A stretch of DNA of 14,381 bases from an uncultured Gammaproteobacteria bacterium (GTDB taxonomy: Bacteria > Patescibacteriota > Patescibacteriia > UBA2591 > UBA6264): positions 1 to 14,381 of the forward strand of contig CAZDOL010000002.1 in the NCBI GenBank assembly GCA_964507075.1, read 5' to 3'. Of the stretch, positions 2,869 through 11,890 are shown one piece after another. Position numbers and translations under genes: made by a program. Numbering within the stretch: position 1 is the stretch's first letter; each line of letters opens with the position of its first letter. The notes beneath the pieces are model-generated. The model had not been told where the DNA came from. It did not search any database and saw only the letters and a list, made by a program, of their open reading frames with translations.

Positions 2869-3801
2869 TTAAAACTCACTATTAATATAATCCCGTAGAG
2901 CTTTCTTCCAAGAACGGGCAGAAGAAATCTTAGTATTTCTCAATATAGAATAATTTGGCCTAGGAGCAGGCCTAGGATATTCTCTTGACGCGCAAGGAAC
3001 TATCCTGGCTACTGGCTTTTTAATAAAACCATATTTCAGGCCTTGACGAACGATTTCTTTGGCAAAGGTATACCATGTTGTTCGTCCTTTATTAGTAAAG
3101 TGATAGAAACCAAAGGGAAGATTATTGTCTAAAATTTCTTTTGTTTCTTGAGCTAAATCTAGAGTATAAGCAGGTGAACCGTGTTGATCATTAACCACTT
3201 TCAATAAAGGACGTTTCTCTGCTAAATCTAGAATGGTGCTAACAAAATTTTTGCAGGGAGTAGCCACTGAAGGGCCGAAGAGCCAAGCTGTTCTAATAAT
3301 ATAATATTTCTCTAACTTAGATTTAACGACATTCTTTTCTCCCAATGTTTTGGACCTACCATAAGCATTAAGAGATCTCTGTTCGTCATTCTCAGAATAA
3401 CCCTTTTTTTTCTGACCATCAAAAACATAATCTGTGCTGTAATGAACCAGCGTGGAATTCAAATTATAACATATTTCTGAAAGATAATTAAGGGCATTAC
3501 CGTTAATTTCATTGGCCGTGTCTTCATCATCTTCTGCCTTATCAACGTCAGTATAAGCAGCAGCGTTAATAATAATATCTGGCTTTAAAGAGTTTATTTT
3601 ATTTTTTAATACTTCTTTGATTGTAATGTCAATTTCTTCTCTATCCCATGCCGTTATATTTGCTCCCTGAAAAATCTTTTTTAAATCAGAGCCCAACATT
3701 CCTTTAGCTCCTAATATTAAAATTTTGGGGGGCTCTTGCCTGCCCAATGGGAGCGTAGCGACTTTACGGGGTTTCTTGTTTTTTACATTTTTGGCAAACA
3801 T
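2869..3801 (-). CDS. rmlD: dTDP-4-dehydrorhamnose reductase (RmlD) with atypical ~25-aa N-terminal extension
   Basis: The Rossmann motif ILILGAKGMLGS, the STDYVFDG and YGRSK (catalytic Y-x3-K) motifs and the C-terminal W..AL..Y motif are all RmlD-like. The start is uncertain. The only in-frame ATG (3799-3801) overlaps the infB 3' end by 19 nt, and the extension is encoded largely by GC-rich repeat copy A. An alternative TTG lies at 3745-3747. Confidence 0.8.
   Translation of the reverse strand: MFAKNVKNKKPRKVATLPLGRQEPPKILILGAKGMLGSDLKKIFQGANITAWDREEIDITIKEVLKNKINSLKPDIIINAAAYTDVDKAEDDEDTANEINGNALNYLSEICYNLNSTLVHYSTDYVFDGQKKKGYSENDEQRSLNAYGRSKTLGEKNVVKSKLEKYYIIRTAWLFGPSVATPCKNFVSTILDLAEKRPLLKVVNDQHGSPAYTLDLAQETKEILDNNLPFGFYHFTNKGRTTWYTFAKEIVRQGLKYGFIKKPVARIVPCASREYPRPAPRPNYSILRNTKISSARSWKKALRDYINSEF
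3734..3778 (-). repeat. GC-rich interspersed palindromic element, copy A (35-nt core 3739-3773 flanked by a 5-bp direct repeat)
   Basis: The minus-strand core is AACCCCGTAAAGTCGCTACGCTCCCATTGGGCAGG. It matches copy B at 31 of 36 aligned positions. CAAGA (TCTTG on +) abuts both ends, at 3734-3738 and 3774-3778. It is a GC island in AT-rich DNA. Confidence 0.6.
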
Positions 3802-5801: not shown

Positions 5802-5855
5802 AATTCCAATATTTTAATGTTCCAATGTTCCAATGTTCTCATGCTCTAATGTTTT
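5800..5855. repeat. Octanucleotide tandem repeat (AATGTTCC on +, GGAACATT on -), about 7 units, spanning the vanW 3' end, the spacer and the infB start codon
   Basis: The + strand units in 8-nt register are ataattcc, aatatttt, aatgttcc, aatgttcc, aatgttct, catgctct and aatgtttt. The array encodes the VanW tail TLEHENIGTLEH, which has 8-aa periodicity. It also forms the whole 12-nt spacer before the infB ATG. Confidence 0.7.
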
Positions 5856-8165: not shown

Positions 8166-9395
8166 CTAATAAAAATAAACTGGATAAATTTTTCCGCAAT
8201 CTATAATTTTTTCGTTAATATTTTGATAACTTAAATAGACGTCTATATCAGGATATCTATTCTTAAAAGACTCCACTGAACTGAATTTTGCGCTTTTCAA
8301 ATAGGCCTTTGATTCTATTGCTATAGTTCTGCCATTACCTAAAAAAATGATAAAATCAATCTCATTCTTTTTCTTATCACGCCAAAAGTTGAATTTATAA
8401 TCATTTTTAATGAATTGTTGAGCTAATCCATTTTCCAGCAATAACCCTTTGTCTGGTCTTGTGTCTAATTTTCTAAAATCATCAACAATAAAATTTCTTA
8501 ATCCTGTATCTAAAAAATAAACTTTAGGATTTTTAACAATTTCAGTTCTTCTATTTTTAAAATACGGCCTCAAAAAACTACATATATAAGTTTTTTCTAA
8601 AAAATTCAAGTATTTTTTCAAAGAAGGATAAGAATAACCCGATACTTGAGATAATTCCTGATAATCTAATAAATTTCCTACTTGCAAAGCAAGCGCTTTT
8701 GTTAAATTATTCAATTTATAATCATCAATCAGACCCAATATATCCCTGACCTCCCTTAAAAAATAAGTGTTATAAATATTACGCAGGAGTTCTTTCTTTG
8801 CATCATAACTATTCTCTAAAACAACGCGTGGATAACCTCCGAAAAGCAAGTGCTCTTCATAATAATGTAATAATTTTTTATGAGCCTCCGTTCCTATGCT
8901 TATTTGAATGTCTTTAAATTGTTCAACTAATTTTCTATTCTTTTTATATATCTTTAAGTAATTCTTGTCCTTAGCTGACAAAAACTCTTGAAAATCAAAT
9001 GGATAAAGATTAAAGATTAAAACCCTGCCAACTAAATATTTTACCGCTCTAACGCTTAAATCAATTGCAGAAGATCCTGAAATTATAATTTTTATTTTCT
9101 GAGAATCAAAGATGTACTTAAGTGTCTTGCCTCCATTTTTTGCATATTGGAATTCGTCAATAAATAAATATTTGTTTCCTTTTATGTATATATTTATAAA
9201 ATCATCCGTTTGATTTTCAAACATTCTTAATATATTTTGGTCATCAAAAGAGATAGAAACAGCATTGCTAAGATTTTTGATTAAATGATTAATCATTGTG
9301 GTTTTTCCTGTTTGACGAGCGCCCGTTATGGCAATTATCTCTCTAGCGTCCAAATACTTCAAAATGGTACTCTCTAAATTACGCTTAATATACAT
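8166..9395 (-). CDS. AAA+ superfamily ATPase, COG1373-like (AAA_14 plus DUF4143 architecture), function unknown
   Basis: A Walker A motif (ITGARQTGKTT) and a Walker B-like motif (YLFIDEFQ) are present. At 409 aa, the length and C-terminal region are typical of the DUF4143 ATPase family. By eye the gene is more AT-rich than its neighbours. Confidence 0.8.
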   Translation of the reverse strand: MYIKRNLESTILKYLDAREIIAITGARQTGKTTMINHLIKNLSNAVSISFDDQNILRMFENQTDDFINIYIKGNKYLFIDEFQYAKNGGKTLKYIFDSQKIKIIISGSSAIDLSVRAVKYLVGRVLIFNLYPFDFQEFLSAKDKNYLKIYKKNRKLVEQFKDIQISIGTEAHKKLLHYYEEHLLFGGYPRVVLENSYDAKKELLRNIYNTYFLREVRDILGLIDDYKLNNLTKALALQVGNLLDYQELSQVSGYSYPSLKKYLNFLEKTYICSFLRPYFKNRRTEIVKNPKVYFLDTGLRNFIVDDFRKLDTRPDKGLLLENGLAQQFIKNDYKFNFWRDKKKNEIDFIIFLGNGRTIAIESKAYLKSAKFSSVESFKNRYPDIDVYLSYQNINEKIIDCGKIYPVYFY

Positions 9396-9434: not shown

Positions 9435-9463
9435 ATTATAGTTCCATCTTATATTTTTGTCAA
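9435..9463 (-). promoter_or_regulatory. Perfect-consensus sigma70-type promoter (TTGACA-17-TATAAT) upstream of the ATPase gene
   Basis: The minus strand reads TTGACAaaaatataagatggaacTATAAT. The -35 box is at 9458-9463 and the -10 box at 9435-9440, separated by a 17-nt spacer. The start codon is about 40 nt downstream. An 8-bp inverted repeat CTATAATT/AATTATAG (9434-9441 and 9414-9421) overlaps the -10 box. Confidence 0.6.
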
Positions 9464-9469
9464 TACATG

Positions 9470-9517
9470 CTAATGCCTGCCCCGTGGGAGAGGTAGCGAC
9501 TCTACGGGGTTCTAATG
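9470..9517 (-). repeat. GC-rich interspersed palindromic element, copy B (36-nt core 9476-9511 flanked by an exact 6-bp direct repeat)
   Basis: The minus-strand core is AACCCCGTAGAGTCGCTACCTCTCCCACGGGGCAGG. It forms a hairpin through CCCCGU/ACGGGG and AGAG/CUCU pairing around a 7-nt loop. CATTAG (CTAATG on +) abuts both ends, at 9470-9475 and 9512-9517. Confidence 0.65.
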
Positions 9518-9520
9518 ACT

Positions 9521-11743
9521 TTAGTCCGCTTTCATTGTTGCAACACTAACGCCTCCGTGAAAACTACGAGAATAAGAATGAAACTGTGAAACAGGATCGC
9601 CAGATGGAGCAAAAATATTAATTTGTGGTTCTTTAGAGCCATTAGGAGCTACAATAATTTCTACCTTATTGTCTTCATCAAAATCAGCAGTTGCTATATT
9701 AGTGCCGTGATAAAAATCTTTAGAATAAGCCAAAAATTGTAAACGCAATAAAAGTAATTTAGAATCAAAAACTCTGATATAAGCAGATGCTTCTGAAGCA
9801 ACGCTTGCTAAAATTTCATTTTGGCCATCTCCATCTACATCGCCTATTGCAACATCAACACCACCTAAGAAATTTTTATTAAAAGCAAAAAAGTGGAATT
9901 TAATATTACCTTGACCATCAAAAACTCTAATATGAGGGCCACCGCCTGGGCCAGCGCCAGTTACAATCTCCTCTTTGCCGTCTCCATCTACGTCGCCCAC
10001 AGCTACATTAACGCCACCCTTGAAATTTTTATGATAAGCAAAAAAATCAGCTTTTATGTTCCCATTAATATCAAAAACTTTAATATTGGAATTACCATTA
10101 GGCCCTGGGGCTGTAATAATCTCATCTATTCCATTCCCATCTACATCGCCCACAGCTATATTAACACCACCCCTAAAACTATCATCATAAGCAAAGAATC
10201 CACCCTCAGGATAGCCGCCTACATTAAAAACTCTAACATGAGGGCCACCGCCTGGGCCAGCGCCAGTTACAATCTCGTCTTTGCCGTCTCCACTAACATC
10301 TCCAGCTGCAACCTGAACTCCACCTCTAAAATTTTCATTGTAAGCAAAGAATCCGCTTAAAGGCAATCCTGCTGAGTCAAAAACTCTAACATGAGGGCCA
10401 CCGCCTGGGCCAGCGCCAGTTACAATATAATAAGATTGATGCAATGTTCCCAACTGACTATATGCATAATCAATAGTAGCGTAAGCGTTTACCCTTCCTC
10501 TGCCTAATTGTCCTTCCAAACCCGGATTAAAAGCATCAATATCATCGGCATGATTTAAAATAAAATCTTGAACTTGCTTTTGACTAAAAAGGGGATTTAC
10601 AGACCAAACCAAAGCTGCTAAGCCCGAAACTATAGGCGCGGCAATTGAGGTTCCTGACCAATAACCGCCATAATATTCTCTGTAATTCTCATAATTAGGG
10701 TTATAAGCTAAAGCTCCATAAATTCTGGTTCCAGGAGCGGAAATATCAACGCATATACTGCCAAAATCAGAAAAAAGCGCTTTGTGGTCAGTGTCATCTA
10801 GGGCCGCCACGCCAATGATAAAATTTTCATCATCATCTTCGTCCAAACATATGGGATAATTTGGATTTTCATTAAGATTTACTGGCTGATTTACTGTTTC
10901 ATTACCAGCAGCTGCGACTACAATCACTCCATTTTTCCATGCCTCTTTCAGGGCTTCTGCCAAGAAAAAACTCTTGCTGGTGCCAACAAAACTTAAATTT
11001 ATAATCTTAGCTCCATTATCAACTGCATAACGAACGGCGCGAATAACATGCTCCACACTCCCTGTGCCCTGACTATTTAAAACTCTAAGAGGCATAATCT
11101 TACTGTTCCATGCCAAACCAGTGATTCCTTCGTTGTTATTTCCAACTGCCGAAGCAATGCCAGCAACTAAAGTTCCATGATGAATACCACTTTCATTATA
11201 ATCCTCGTCAAATTTTGGCTTAGGATCAAGGGTGCTCCTTACAAAATCCCAACCACGCAAATCATCTATATAACCATTATTGTCGTTGTCCTTTCCGTCT
11301 CCTCGTATTTCGTCTTTATTCAACCATATATTTTCTTTTAAATCAGGATGGTCAATATCAACGCCTGTATCTAAAATAGCAATAACAATATCTTGATTTC
11401 CTCCTTTAGTAAAATCCCAAGCTTGAGGAGCTTTAATTTTGCCCAAATACCACTGTTGGTCATATAATAAATCCGCGGGAATAAAAGCAGCTTGAAAGGA
11501 ATAATTTGGCTCAACATAATCCACTAAAGGCAAAAAAGAAAACATTTTCTCCATTATCTTAGCGAATAAAGGATTAACTGGAATCTTATAAATCTCCTGT
11601 TTGTTTTTTAATCTAACCAAAAGTTCATTATGTCCCGAACCAGAAACATTAAATGGAATAAACGAAAACAAGGTGAGTAAAAAAATACTCAACAAAAAAA
11701 TAACTATAATTTTCTTTCTCTTAAAAAACATCATAATGGTCAT
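9521..11743 (-). CDS. Secreted subtilisin-like serine protease (peptidase S8) with I9-like propeptide and C-terminal FG-GAP/VCBS-type repeat propeller
   Basis: The catalytic triad contexts are ILDTGVDIDHPDL (Asp), HHGTLVAGIA (His) and GTSIAAPIVSG (Ser). The start is set at ATG 11741-11743 because MTIMMFFKRKKIIVIFLLSIFLLTLFSF is a classical signal peptide; ATGs at 11734 or 11731 are equally possible. The 46 upstream ORF-track codons run through the GC-rich structured spacer and look non-coding. Confidence 0.85.
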   Translation of the reverse strand: MTIMMFFKRKKIIVIFLLSIFLLTLFSFIPFNVSGSGHNELLVRLKNKQEIYKIPVNPLFAKIMEKMFSFLPLVDYVEPNYSFQAAFIPADLLYDQQWYLGKIKAPQAWDFTKGGNQDIVIAILDTGVDIDHPDLKENIWLNKDEIRGDGKDNDNNGYIDDLRGWDFVRSTLDPKPKFDEDYNESGIHHGTLVAGIASAVGNNNEGITGLAWNSKIMPLRVLNSQGTGSVEHVIRAVRYAVDNGAKIINLSFVGTSKSFFLAEALKEAWKNGVIVVAAAGNETVNQPVNLNENPNYPICLDEDDDENFIIGVAALDDTDHKALFSDFGSICVDISAPGTRIYGALAYNPNYENYREYYGGYWSGTSIAAPIVSGLAALVWSVNPLFSQKQVQDFILNHADDIDAFNPGLEGQLGRGRVNAYATIDYAYSQLGTLHQSYYIVTGAGPGGGPHVRVFDSAGLPLSGFFAYNENFRGGVQVAAGDVSGDGKDEIVTGAGPGGGPHVRVFNVGGYPEGGFFAYDDSFRGGVNIAVGDVDGNGIDEIITAPGPNGNSNIKVFDINGNIKADFFAYHKNFKGGVNVAVGDVDGDGKEEIVTGAGPGGGPHIRVFDGQGNIKFHFFAFNKNFLGGVDVAIGDVDGDGQNEILASVASEASAYIRVFDSKLLLLRLQFLAYSKDFYHGTNIATADFDEDNKVEIIVAPNGSKEPQINIFAPSGDPVSQFHSYSRSFHGGVSVATMKAD
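9524..10429 (-). repeat. Six tandem ~51-aa FG-GAP-like blades with near-identical DNA segments
   Basis: The protein repeat unit is IVTGAGPGGGPH(V/I)RVF..G....FFAY...F.GGV.VA.GDVDGDG..E, present six times, with the last two copies degenerate. The DNA segment aaaactcta(a/t)(c/t)atgagggccaccgcctgggccagcgccagttacaat recurs at 9921-9970, 10227-10276 and 10380-10425. Confidence 0.8.
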
Positions 11744-11890
11744 AAACGTCAGTCCCGGGGACTGGCTCCGACCTGCCCGCCTTGCTTTGCAAGGCGAAGC
11801 GGGCGGGAGGTGCCTGTCCCCATTTAAAACGTCAGTCGTTAAAGAGGAGCGAAGCGACGGGAAAACGTCTGACGTTGACATTAATAAAAA
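11744..11890 (-). repeat. Compound GC-rich structured element cluster (related to copies A and B) filling the gyrA-protease spacer
   Basis: Hairpin 1 spans 11828-11876, with 13-nt arms paired at 12 of 13 positions. Hairpin 2 spans 11757-11821, is 65 nt long and has a CCUUGC-aaa-GCAAGG apex. An exact 11-nt direct repeat AAACGTCAGTC lies at 11744-11754 and 11827-11837. GCGAAGC occurs twice, at 11794-11800 and 11849-11855. The termini CCCG... and ...GGGCAGG/GGGACAGG are shared with copies A and B. Confidence 0.5.

Follow-up and report, generated by a model that had tools for sequence, protein, structure and literature searches.

The small, streamlined genomes of the Candidate Phyla Radiation (CPR) are usually described as repeat-poor. 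Elsewhere, short palindromic repeats are familiar features of bacterial and organellar genomes, and the repetitive extragenic palindromic (REP) elements end or protect transcripts and set expression ratios in some E. coli operons. A stretch of 14,381 nt from an uncultured bacterium (contig CAZDOL010000002.1 of assembly GCA_964507075.1; to be referred to as the window) contains a 147-nt spacer between gyrA and the gene of an S8 protease. This spacer is probably a mosaic of miniature GC-rich palindromic repeats, like REP elements and their bacterial interspersed mosaic elements (BIMEs) or like the miniature transposable elements with inverted repeats known as MITEs, that arose by successive insertions into a junction of 12-14 nt. 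Two described systems outside the REP group are useful for comparison. The Rickettsia palindromic elements (RPE) are about 150 bp in length (PMC10969869). The GC clusters of yeast mitochondria are GC-rich hairpins of 30-60 nt with short direct repeats on their flanks, and the genome that carries them is AT-rich; they are gained and lost rapidly among close relatives, and merge into composite clusters (PMC4478555).

By their gyrA and protease sequences, the closest kin of the window are metagenome-assembled genomes of Patescibacteria (CPR), and the nearest named group is Falkowbacteria. No account of elements like these in Patescibacteria or the CPR came up in a full-text search of the open-access literature, and the family is apparently undescribed. 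Two elements can be proposed in the spacer. Element 1 would be hairpin 1, in which a TTAATG leader is followed by inverted arms of 13 nt that enclose a GC-rich core; it appears to be the older one, is common to some relatives, and would belong to a dispersed family. Element 2 would be a 72-nt block containing hairpin 2, inserted in the window lineage only, beside the 3' arm of element 1. This insertion would have duplicated the last 11 nt of that arm on both sides of the block.

The spacer and its counterparts in relatives

Every gene of the window is carried by the minus strand. The features of the gyrA-protease region are as follows.

14377-11891, minus strand: gyrA coding sequence; gyrase A Pfam domains are found in the product of the orthologous locus L001
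11893-11891, minus strand: gyrA stop codon, TGA
11879-11884, minus strand: TTAATG leader before hairpin 1
11864-11876, minus strand: 5' arm of hairpin 1, AACGTCAGACGTT, itself a 6-1-6 palindrome
11841-11863, minus strand: loop of hairpin 1, 23 nt, TTCCCGTCGCTTCGCTCCTCTTT (the 'S1' core); 20 alignment columns longer in L007 and L044
11828-11840, minus strand: 3' arm of hairpin 1, AACGACTGACGTT
11827-11837, minus strand: proximal copy of the 11-nt repeat, GACTGACGTTT, overlapping the 3' arm of hairpin 1
11755-11826, minus strand: 72-nt block, consisting of a TAAAT leader, hairpin 2, and GG; seen in none of six relatives
11757-11821, minus strand: hairpin 2, an imperfect palindrome of 65 nt; GGGGAC and GTCCCC form its ends and CCTTGC-AAA-GCAAGG its apex
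11744-11754, minus strand: distal copy of the 11-nt repeat, GACTGACGTTT, abutting the ATG at 11743
11729-11743, minus strand: candidate protease starts, ATG 11743-11741 and ATGATG 11734-11729, with a signal-peptide-like N-terminus next

The mean GC content of the window is 34%, and the region 11736-11840 is its longest stretch with 40-nt windows of at least 60% GC. In hairpin 1, 12 of the 13 arm positions are paired, and TTTTAAAT, which gives a UUUU tract, follows directly. The folding energy of hairpin 1 as RNA is -13.4 kcal/mol (z = -2.5), and over the RNA and DNA folds its z scores are -2.5 / -2.6. For hairpin 2 the RNA fold reaches -41.3 kcal/mol (z = -5.5), with none of 200 shuffles as good, and the z scores as DNA are -4.5 and -4.8 on the two strands. 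As DNA, the palindromes fold equally well on either strand. The arms of hairpin 2 include GGCGGGCAGGTCGGAGCC and GGGGACAGGCACCTCCCGCC, and hairpin 2 has no U tract. Both hairpins have terminal inverted repeats, formed by the 12/13 arms in hairpin 1 and by the ends of hairpin 2, which is palindromic throughout. The exact 11-mer AAACGTCAGTC occurs just twice in the window, and shuffles average 0.11 matches even with one mismatch allowed. The original prediction for this stretch had the coordinates of both hairpins, the 11-nt repeat, the GC island, and the open reading frame (ORF) that reads through the spacer all right, and these features are beyond chance.

The gyrA-protease junction was compared in six related lineages (L007, L008, L044, L045, L047, and L049).

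L008 (gyrA 78%): 14 nt, GAAGAGGAAATAAG; neither element
L045 (protease 87%): 12 nt; neither element
L049 (protease 83%): 13 nt; neither element
L007 (gyrA 89%): 107 nt; hairpin 1, ending in TTAACGAATGACGTTT right before ATGACCATTATGATG
L047 (protease 85%): 112 nt; AT-decayed hairpin 1, a remnant of another hairpin, AAATTAAGG, and ATGATG
L044 (protease 89-90%): 162 nt; hairpin 1, enclosed by a hairpin of a further type (type X) with AATGTTGACCCCAGAG as 5' half and CCGACCACTGGGGTC as 3' half

Hairpin 1, intact or decayed, is thus found in three of the six relatives and hairpin 2 in none. The three junctions of only 12-14 nt (L008, L045, and L049) show the ancestral state to be a tiny gap. L007 is the closest of the relatives with hairpin 1 only. 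In L007 a single GAATGACGTTT stands directly before ATGACC, whereas the window has GACTGACGTTT, the 72-nt block, and GACTGACGTTT again. The two sequences differ here by one indel of 83 nt (the 72 nt and the second copy of GACTGACGTTT), and L007 has the empty site with a single 11-mer, which supports the earlier proposal of a second, nested insertion with target duplication. The spacer is identical in all six retrieved assemblies of the window population (99.5-99.98% identical).

Hairpin 2 also looks composite. Its leader and outer arms (TAAATG-GGGGACAG...GTCCCC) match a palindrome, TAAATGGGGACAGTCCCC, that is present in two tandem copies at L044:391-423. Hairpin 2 therefore looks like a simple palindrome of this type, split in the centre by an insert of about 50 nt. 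In L044, the X-type stem that encloses hairpin 1 gives a nested fold with z = -2.4 as RNA and -3.8 as DNA. Insertion into a hairpin loop or a palindrome centre thus appears twice, in hairpin 1 inside X and in the interior of hairpin 2.

Turnover is not confined to this junction. The lactamase-gyrA junction differs in such hairpins between L007 and L044 on one side and L001, L045, and L047 on the other. Moreover, X-type hairpins are gained and lost among close relatives at both the LamG-lactamase and the lactamase-gyrA junctions.

A proposed dispersed hairpin family and its possible movement

Sequence related to the spacer is found elsewhere for hairpin 1. An unrelated metagenomic contig of 2.6 kb (L025) contains a copy with 91% identity over 55 nt. 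This copy is located between two X-type hairpins (TTGACCCCAGAGGAGCGCGTTCCGCCCACCACTGGGGTC) and followed by TTTTATAAT, and a third X hairpin and a copy of the element type seen in copies A and B (below) lie within about 700 nt. A fragment of the 5' end of hairpin 1 is found at L001:4270-4290, between duplicated X-type 5' ends (L001:4233-4319). In this segment of L001, the X-type 5' end (ATTTATATTAATGCCGACCCCAG) is duplicated over 23 nt, and between its two copies there is an insert of 40 nt with a start like that of hairpin 1 (TAATGTTGACGTCAG). The X-type hairpin at this site is undisrupted in L007, which points to a second insertion with a long flanking duplication. Among the related loci and contigs compared, hairpin 1 was seen at a minimum of two distinct loci and hairpin 2 at one.

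Similar AT-rich leaders (TTAATG, TATAATG, TATTAATG, and TAAATG) precede every hairpin type, and the motif G(T/A)C(A/T)(A/G)ACGTTT often follows. The array can be read as motif-core-motif-core-motif, and in this respect it seems to resemble a BIME mosaic. Family members occur within coding regions as well, and others are upstream of genes or in reverse orientation.

The A/B-type element is sharply conserved, with a length of 33-36 nt and the sequence ACCCCGTAAAGTCGCTACGCTCCCACGGGGCAGGCA. Four of its six reading frames are free of stop codons. The copies in the window and further copies listed among those in frame in genes are given below.

3733-3775, minus strand: copy A, in frame in the N-terminal extension of the rmlD ORF, with no alternative start codon downstream
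9470-9513, minus strand: copy B, between the protease stop codon and the promoter of an AAA/DUF4143 gene
L025:1159-1201: further A/B-type copy
L027:5003-5045: further A/B-type copy

The site of copy B is empty in L045, where GTCATTGGAA is joined directly to TATTGGAA. In the window rmlD gene, where the A/B copy is located in the N-terminal extension, the ancestral ATG (MKILILG in L049) is lost. Two other in-frame copies lie within conserved enzymes. One encodes an 11-residue insert, PRKVATRQRGR, in RsmI (L028:649-691) as compared to E. coli RsmI (5hw4), and the other (L033:182-224) is within a 26-residue insert of an RmlD homologue as compared to 1vl0. An exact-pattern scan of JGI metagenomes finds the A/B element in 12 contigs, with about nine distinct contexts and contig GC contents of 32-45%. 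A profile search with the encoded peptide PVKSLRSHGAG matched only two small hypothetical proteins, and in-frame copies are therefore rare among representative proteins.

Several A/B-type copies are flanked by tandem octamer repeats (CATTGGAA or CATTAGAA on the transcribed strand). These are found at 5808-5842 in the window, in the flanks of copy B (about 9514-9521 and 9463-9470), at L045:5330-5360, and in L022, L026, and L029. Octamers without an element occur as well, in the protease-hsp20 spacer of L045 and where the VanW ORF ends, a short way upstream of the start of infB. They resemble a favoured target, or else a feature of their own. The flanks of copy B were considered as proof of target-site duplication and rejected, as L045 has pre-existing CATTGGAA octamers at this position.

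The original prediction had linked sub-blocks of the spacer to copies A and B through shared termini. This kinship receives weak support from hairpin 1, as its loop has a 13-nt core, GTCGCTWCGCTCC, in common with the A/B element (local-alignment p about 0.0015). However, the interior of hairpin 2 shows no significant likeness to A/B (p = 0.33), and neither do the X-type hairpins (p = 0.57). A covariance model built from 11 A/B-type copies (R1) finds copies A and B in the window and nothing in the spacer. One proposed sub-block, CCCGUCGCUUCGCUCCUCU...GGGGACAGG (from CCCGUCGC), does not hold as a unit, since it straddles two insertions of different age.

The elements would most likely propagate as DNA hairpins, with single-stranded loops and palindrome centres as favoured targets, which would explain why they are found inside or beside one another. 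They could be moved by a single-strand HUH/Y1 enzyme like the REP-associated tyrosine transposases (RAYTs), or by recombination or template switching between copies. A Y1_Tnp gene is located 4.2 kb upstream of gyrA in L001 (21-773), and at the same position in L047 (2528-3313). Its Pfam score exceeds the cut-off, and among NCBIfam models it is best matched by REP_Tyr_transpos, with 38 bits against a cut-off of 80. In L047 the gene is flanked by a 21-nt palindrome, AACCAACCCG(T/A)CGGGTTGGTT, in three direct copies (L047:2513-2535, 3282-3304, and 3375-3397), and in L001 by four degenerate versions of the palindrome, of which two fall within the beginning of the LamG ORF. The Y1_Tnp gene with its own palindromes is a putative RAYT-like arrangement. 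Its position beside a LamG-domain gene is conserved.

Several observations weigh against an origin of the spacer by insertion of mobile repeats, or against a particular mover. The Y1_Tnp palindromes differ from hairpin types 1, 2, X, and A/B, and no transposase is tied to the hairpins. L047 keeps the Y1_Tnp gene, yet it has only decayed elements. No insertion sequence (IS) with matching ends was found in about 400 kb of related loci, and no second copy of hairpin 2 in the related loci and contigs compared. The status of hairpin 2 as a repeat would rest on the indel, on the likeness of TAAATG-GGGGAC...GTCCCC to the L044 palindrome, and on analogy. The protease tree interleaves carriers and non-carriers of the elements, with L045 nested among carriers, which therefore implies loss or repeated gain. 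The spacer has three occurrences of the motif CAACGWCWGACGTTT, which could be bound by a protein. Finally, the flanking duplications vary in length, with about 8 nt for one X-type hairpin (X1 of L025), 11 nt in the window, and 23 nt at L001:4233-4319. Y1 enzymes create no target duplication, and DDE transposases create one of fixed length. The variable duplications therefore fit neither a Y1 enzyme nor a DDE transposase, and recombination or template switching at shared motifs may be an equally good candidate mechanism.

Scans of viral contigs with the hairpin 1, hairpin 2, X-type, and A/B-type patterns gave chance-like matches, mostly in GC-rich or unrelated contigs, and no link to phages.

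A more specific scenario can be offered tentatively, as one that is possible and on balance doubtful. In Patescibacteria of this clade, the family would be modular, with at least four types of mini-palindrome that carry an AT-rich, TAATG-type leader, nest in single-stranded loops and centres, are short and open enough (33-36 nt, four of six frames) to be tolerated in frame in rsmI, rmlD, and other essential genes, and are moved by an HUH enzyme or by template switching. The newest insertion would then have produced a bistable leader that covers the start and throttles the secreted protease as a side effect, in an organism whose translation starts without Shine-Dalgarno pairing.

Protease start, spacer RNA, and other explanations

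The relatives have a conserved start, ATGATG(T/A)TTTT, the first ATG of which is common to all of them; the ATGATG corresponds to window positions 11734-11729. Because ATGATG is conserved, the protease start is corrected to 11734. The original prediction had placed the start next to the distal repeat. An ATG does abut this repeat, at 11743-11741, but it is common only to the window and L007, and the surrounding TGACCATT is element debris in L044. ATG 11743 looks like a by-product of the element junction.

An ORF at 9521-11881, starting with ATG 11881-11879, traverses the spacer. In the window it extends 52 codons in frame before the conserved start. All six relatives have an extension of only 2-22 codons with different residues before the frame is closed, which argues against conserved coding and agrees with the earlier suggestion that the ORF track wrongly reads through the spacer. 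In this comparison the read-through ORF is an artefact of a stop-poor GC-rich insert. GC-rich hairpin islands can lead gene callers to extend ORFs in this way, and a 786-residue protease is annotated in every retrieved assembly; the real product has probably about 737-740 residues.

The predicted energy for opening positions -15 to +14 is 20.4 kcal/mol at ATGACC as compared to 12.6 kcal/mol at ATGATG. The corresponding values are 4.6-7.7 kcal/mol for eight other genes of the window and 4.5-10.0 kcal/mol in the relatives. Most genes of the window have an AT-rich upstream region with no Shine-Dalgarno sequence. The 3' end of 16S rRNA, GGATCACCTCATTT (L001:21020-21050), does not contain the full CCUCC anti-Shine-Dalgarno motif, and the organism seems to start translation without Shine-Dalgarno pairing. 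A scan for promoter and terminator consensus sequences called neither within the spacer, and the spacer is therefore probably co-transcribed with gyrA and the protease. The transcript would form two stable stem-loops, with the region upstream of the protease start buried. Protease translation may well be lowered in the window lineage, judging from these models. A 3' stem-loop for the gyrA mRNA and weaker or uncoupled translation of the protease are likely by-products, with no evolved switch involved. The structure at the start region would be a side effect of the newest insertion, because this geometry is absent from every relative.

A regulatory role for the RNA had been part of the original prediction, in which the middle arm and the distal repeat compete for the 5' arm of hairpin 1, and pairing with the distal repeat occludes positions -1 to -9 of the start codon, which would gate translation. 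The two mutually exclusive pairings do exist in silico and are nearly iso-energetic, with -63.1 kcal/mol for the middle arm and -62.0 kcal/mol for the distal repeat, as compared to -65.2 kcal/mol for the free minimum. This minimum-free-energy structure joins the 5' end of the spacer to the distal repeat and part of AUG 11743, and the predicted start region is unusually structured for an organism that lacks Shine-Dalgarno sequences. However, the geometry needs the duplicated 11-mer, which is found in the window lineage alone, and the bistability is a consequence of this duplication. The stem of hairpin 1 is paired in 95% of the cells over five homologues, with no compensatory changes; where the stem varies, one side alone is altered, mostly from C to T with a G-U wobble pair as the result. 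The spacer of the window folds better than shuffles (z = -4.65 on the transcribed strand), but those of L007 and L047 do not (z = +0.4 and +0.8), and in three relatives the leader is missing. For the opposite strand of the window spacer the fold is stronger still (z = -6.25). This stronger fold, together with the equal folding of hairpin 2 as DNA, is the mark of a DNA palindrome and not of a selected RNA. The conserved ATGATG at 11734 is mostly unpaired in the ensemble, with probabilities of 0.74-0.82. A scan of the window against Rfam 15 (E up to 10) gave in the spacer only a chance-level match of mir-540 to hairpin 2 (28.5 bits, gathering threshold 80), and a scan of L025 and L044 (E up to 1) gave as the only family-level match a tRNA in L025, outside the elements. 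A switch-like leader is therefore unsupported, and we regard it as highly improbable.

More can be said for an exapted terminator or mRNA stabilizer, in which hairpin 1 with its UUUU tract, hairpin 2, or both would terminate the gyrA transcript or shield it, and would determine the expression ratio of gyrA to protease. The hairpins are immediately 3' of the gyrA stop codon, copies B and X are likewise located just after stop codons, the sequence after hairpin 1 is TTTTAAAT in the window and TTTTATAAT in L025, and no promoter is predicted in the spacer. On the other hand, the terminator scan calls none there, hairpin 2 has no U tract, the orientation and location of other family members do not fit such a role, and some relatives do without the elements. 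This function is unlikely to account for the spacer. Still less probable, and somewhat below the switch, is an array of three palindromic CAACG(T/A)C(A/T)GACGTTT copies that serve as operators for a dimeric regulator or recombinase, with the GC-rich cores as passengers. In the window, L025, and L044, variable GC-rich cores are indeed joined by this 6-1-6 palindrome as a conserved linker, and in L007 and L047 it recurs in a weaker form. However, no protein is a candidate for binding it, the motif is decayed in L047 and L007, and it is missing from the empty-site relatives, which have otherwise the same genes. The least credible explanation is that the spacer is translated from ATG 11881, 9 nt past the gyrA stop, giving the 786-residue protease a 46-residue N-terminal extension comparable to that with copy A in rmlD. 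The open frame, the annotation in all retrieved assemblies, and the in-frame tolerance of A/B-type elements elsewhere would favour it. Besides the closed frames of the relatives, the length of the block, 83 nt, is not divisible by 3, and the extension would precede the signal-peptide-like N-terminus. Six-frame peptides of the spacer (E up to 10) have no match among representative proteins, a weak result since only cluster representatives were covered and the source ORF itself was not returned.

The genes of the window follow the order gyrA, the S8 protease with FG-GAP repeats, the AAA/DUF4143 ATPase, hsp20, a gene for a VanW protein, infB, rmlD, a nucleotidyltransferase gene, rpsP, a gene for a KH protein, and trmD. 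The AAA/DUF4143 gene (8166-9395) has a perfect TTGACA-17-TATAAT promoter at 9463-9435. It is missing in all six relatives, where hsp20 directly follows the protease, and is a putative lineage-specific insertion immediately downstream of copy B. The gyrA gene of the window (828 residues) has no intein, as compared to those of L044 (441-4505, 1354 residues) and L049 (885-4148, 1087 residues), which carry one (Pfam Intein_splicing). Five tandem 153-nt repeats in the protease gene (9763-10426) encode FG-GAP/VCBS-like units (ITGAGPGGGPHVRVFD...); they are GC-rich coding patches with no relation to the intergenic hairpins. A search of the window with ARAGORN found no tRNA or tmRNA.

Significance and comparison with known systems

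The interest of the spacer is mainly in the self-nesting family to which it would belong, with an A/B-type member in frame inside RsmI and RmlD. A nested-palindrome family that turns over between relatives at 85-90% protein identity could give access to the mutation and recombination processes of unculturable organisms, and possibly to the activity of their HUH enzymes. Its members add real inserts of 11-26 residues to conserved enzymes. A strongly structured, seemingly bistable leader can arise purely by repeat insertion, and this cautions against inferring regulatory function from folding statistics alone.

The REP/BIME-RAYT systems share with this locus short, GC-rich, imperfect palindromes that are mostly intergenic and often just past stop codons, clustered mosaics with conserved linker motifs, and a nearby single-copy, positionally conserved Y1_Tnp gene with its own flanking palindromes. 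In contrast, the palindromes at the Y1 gene differ in sequence from both hairpins of the spacer, the gene scores below the NCBIfam cut-off, and there are flanking duplications here, which movement of the RAYT type should not create. Bacterial MITEs (PMC10969869, PMC3184786) are similar in their terminal inverted repeats, lack of coding capacity, nesting, and clustering, and the empty site in a relative together with the 11-nt direct repeat at hairpin 2 fits them as well. They differ in that no parent IS or matching transposase was found here and in the duplication lengths of about 8, 11, and 23 nt. The elements described here are also far below most MITEs in size (33-72 nt), and their several hairpin types have only a short AT-rich leader in common.

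The A/B-type element behaves like an RPE in RsmI (L028), RmlD (L033), and the extension of the window rmlD, where the ORF is unbroken and a peptide is added. However, it has only 33-36 nt (11-12 codons) and no sequence relationship to RPE, and the spacer is intergenic and not conserved as coding, with the frame open in the window only. With the yeast mitochondrial GC clusters there is again no sequence relationship, and the setting is an organelle there and a free-living-type bacterial genome here. The flanks in yeast are 2-3 nt (AG or ACT), as compared to 8-23 nt in these bacteria. Both systems nevertheless have GC-rich hairpins in an AT-rich genome, flanked by direct repeats, with turnover among relatives and assembly into composite clusters.

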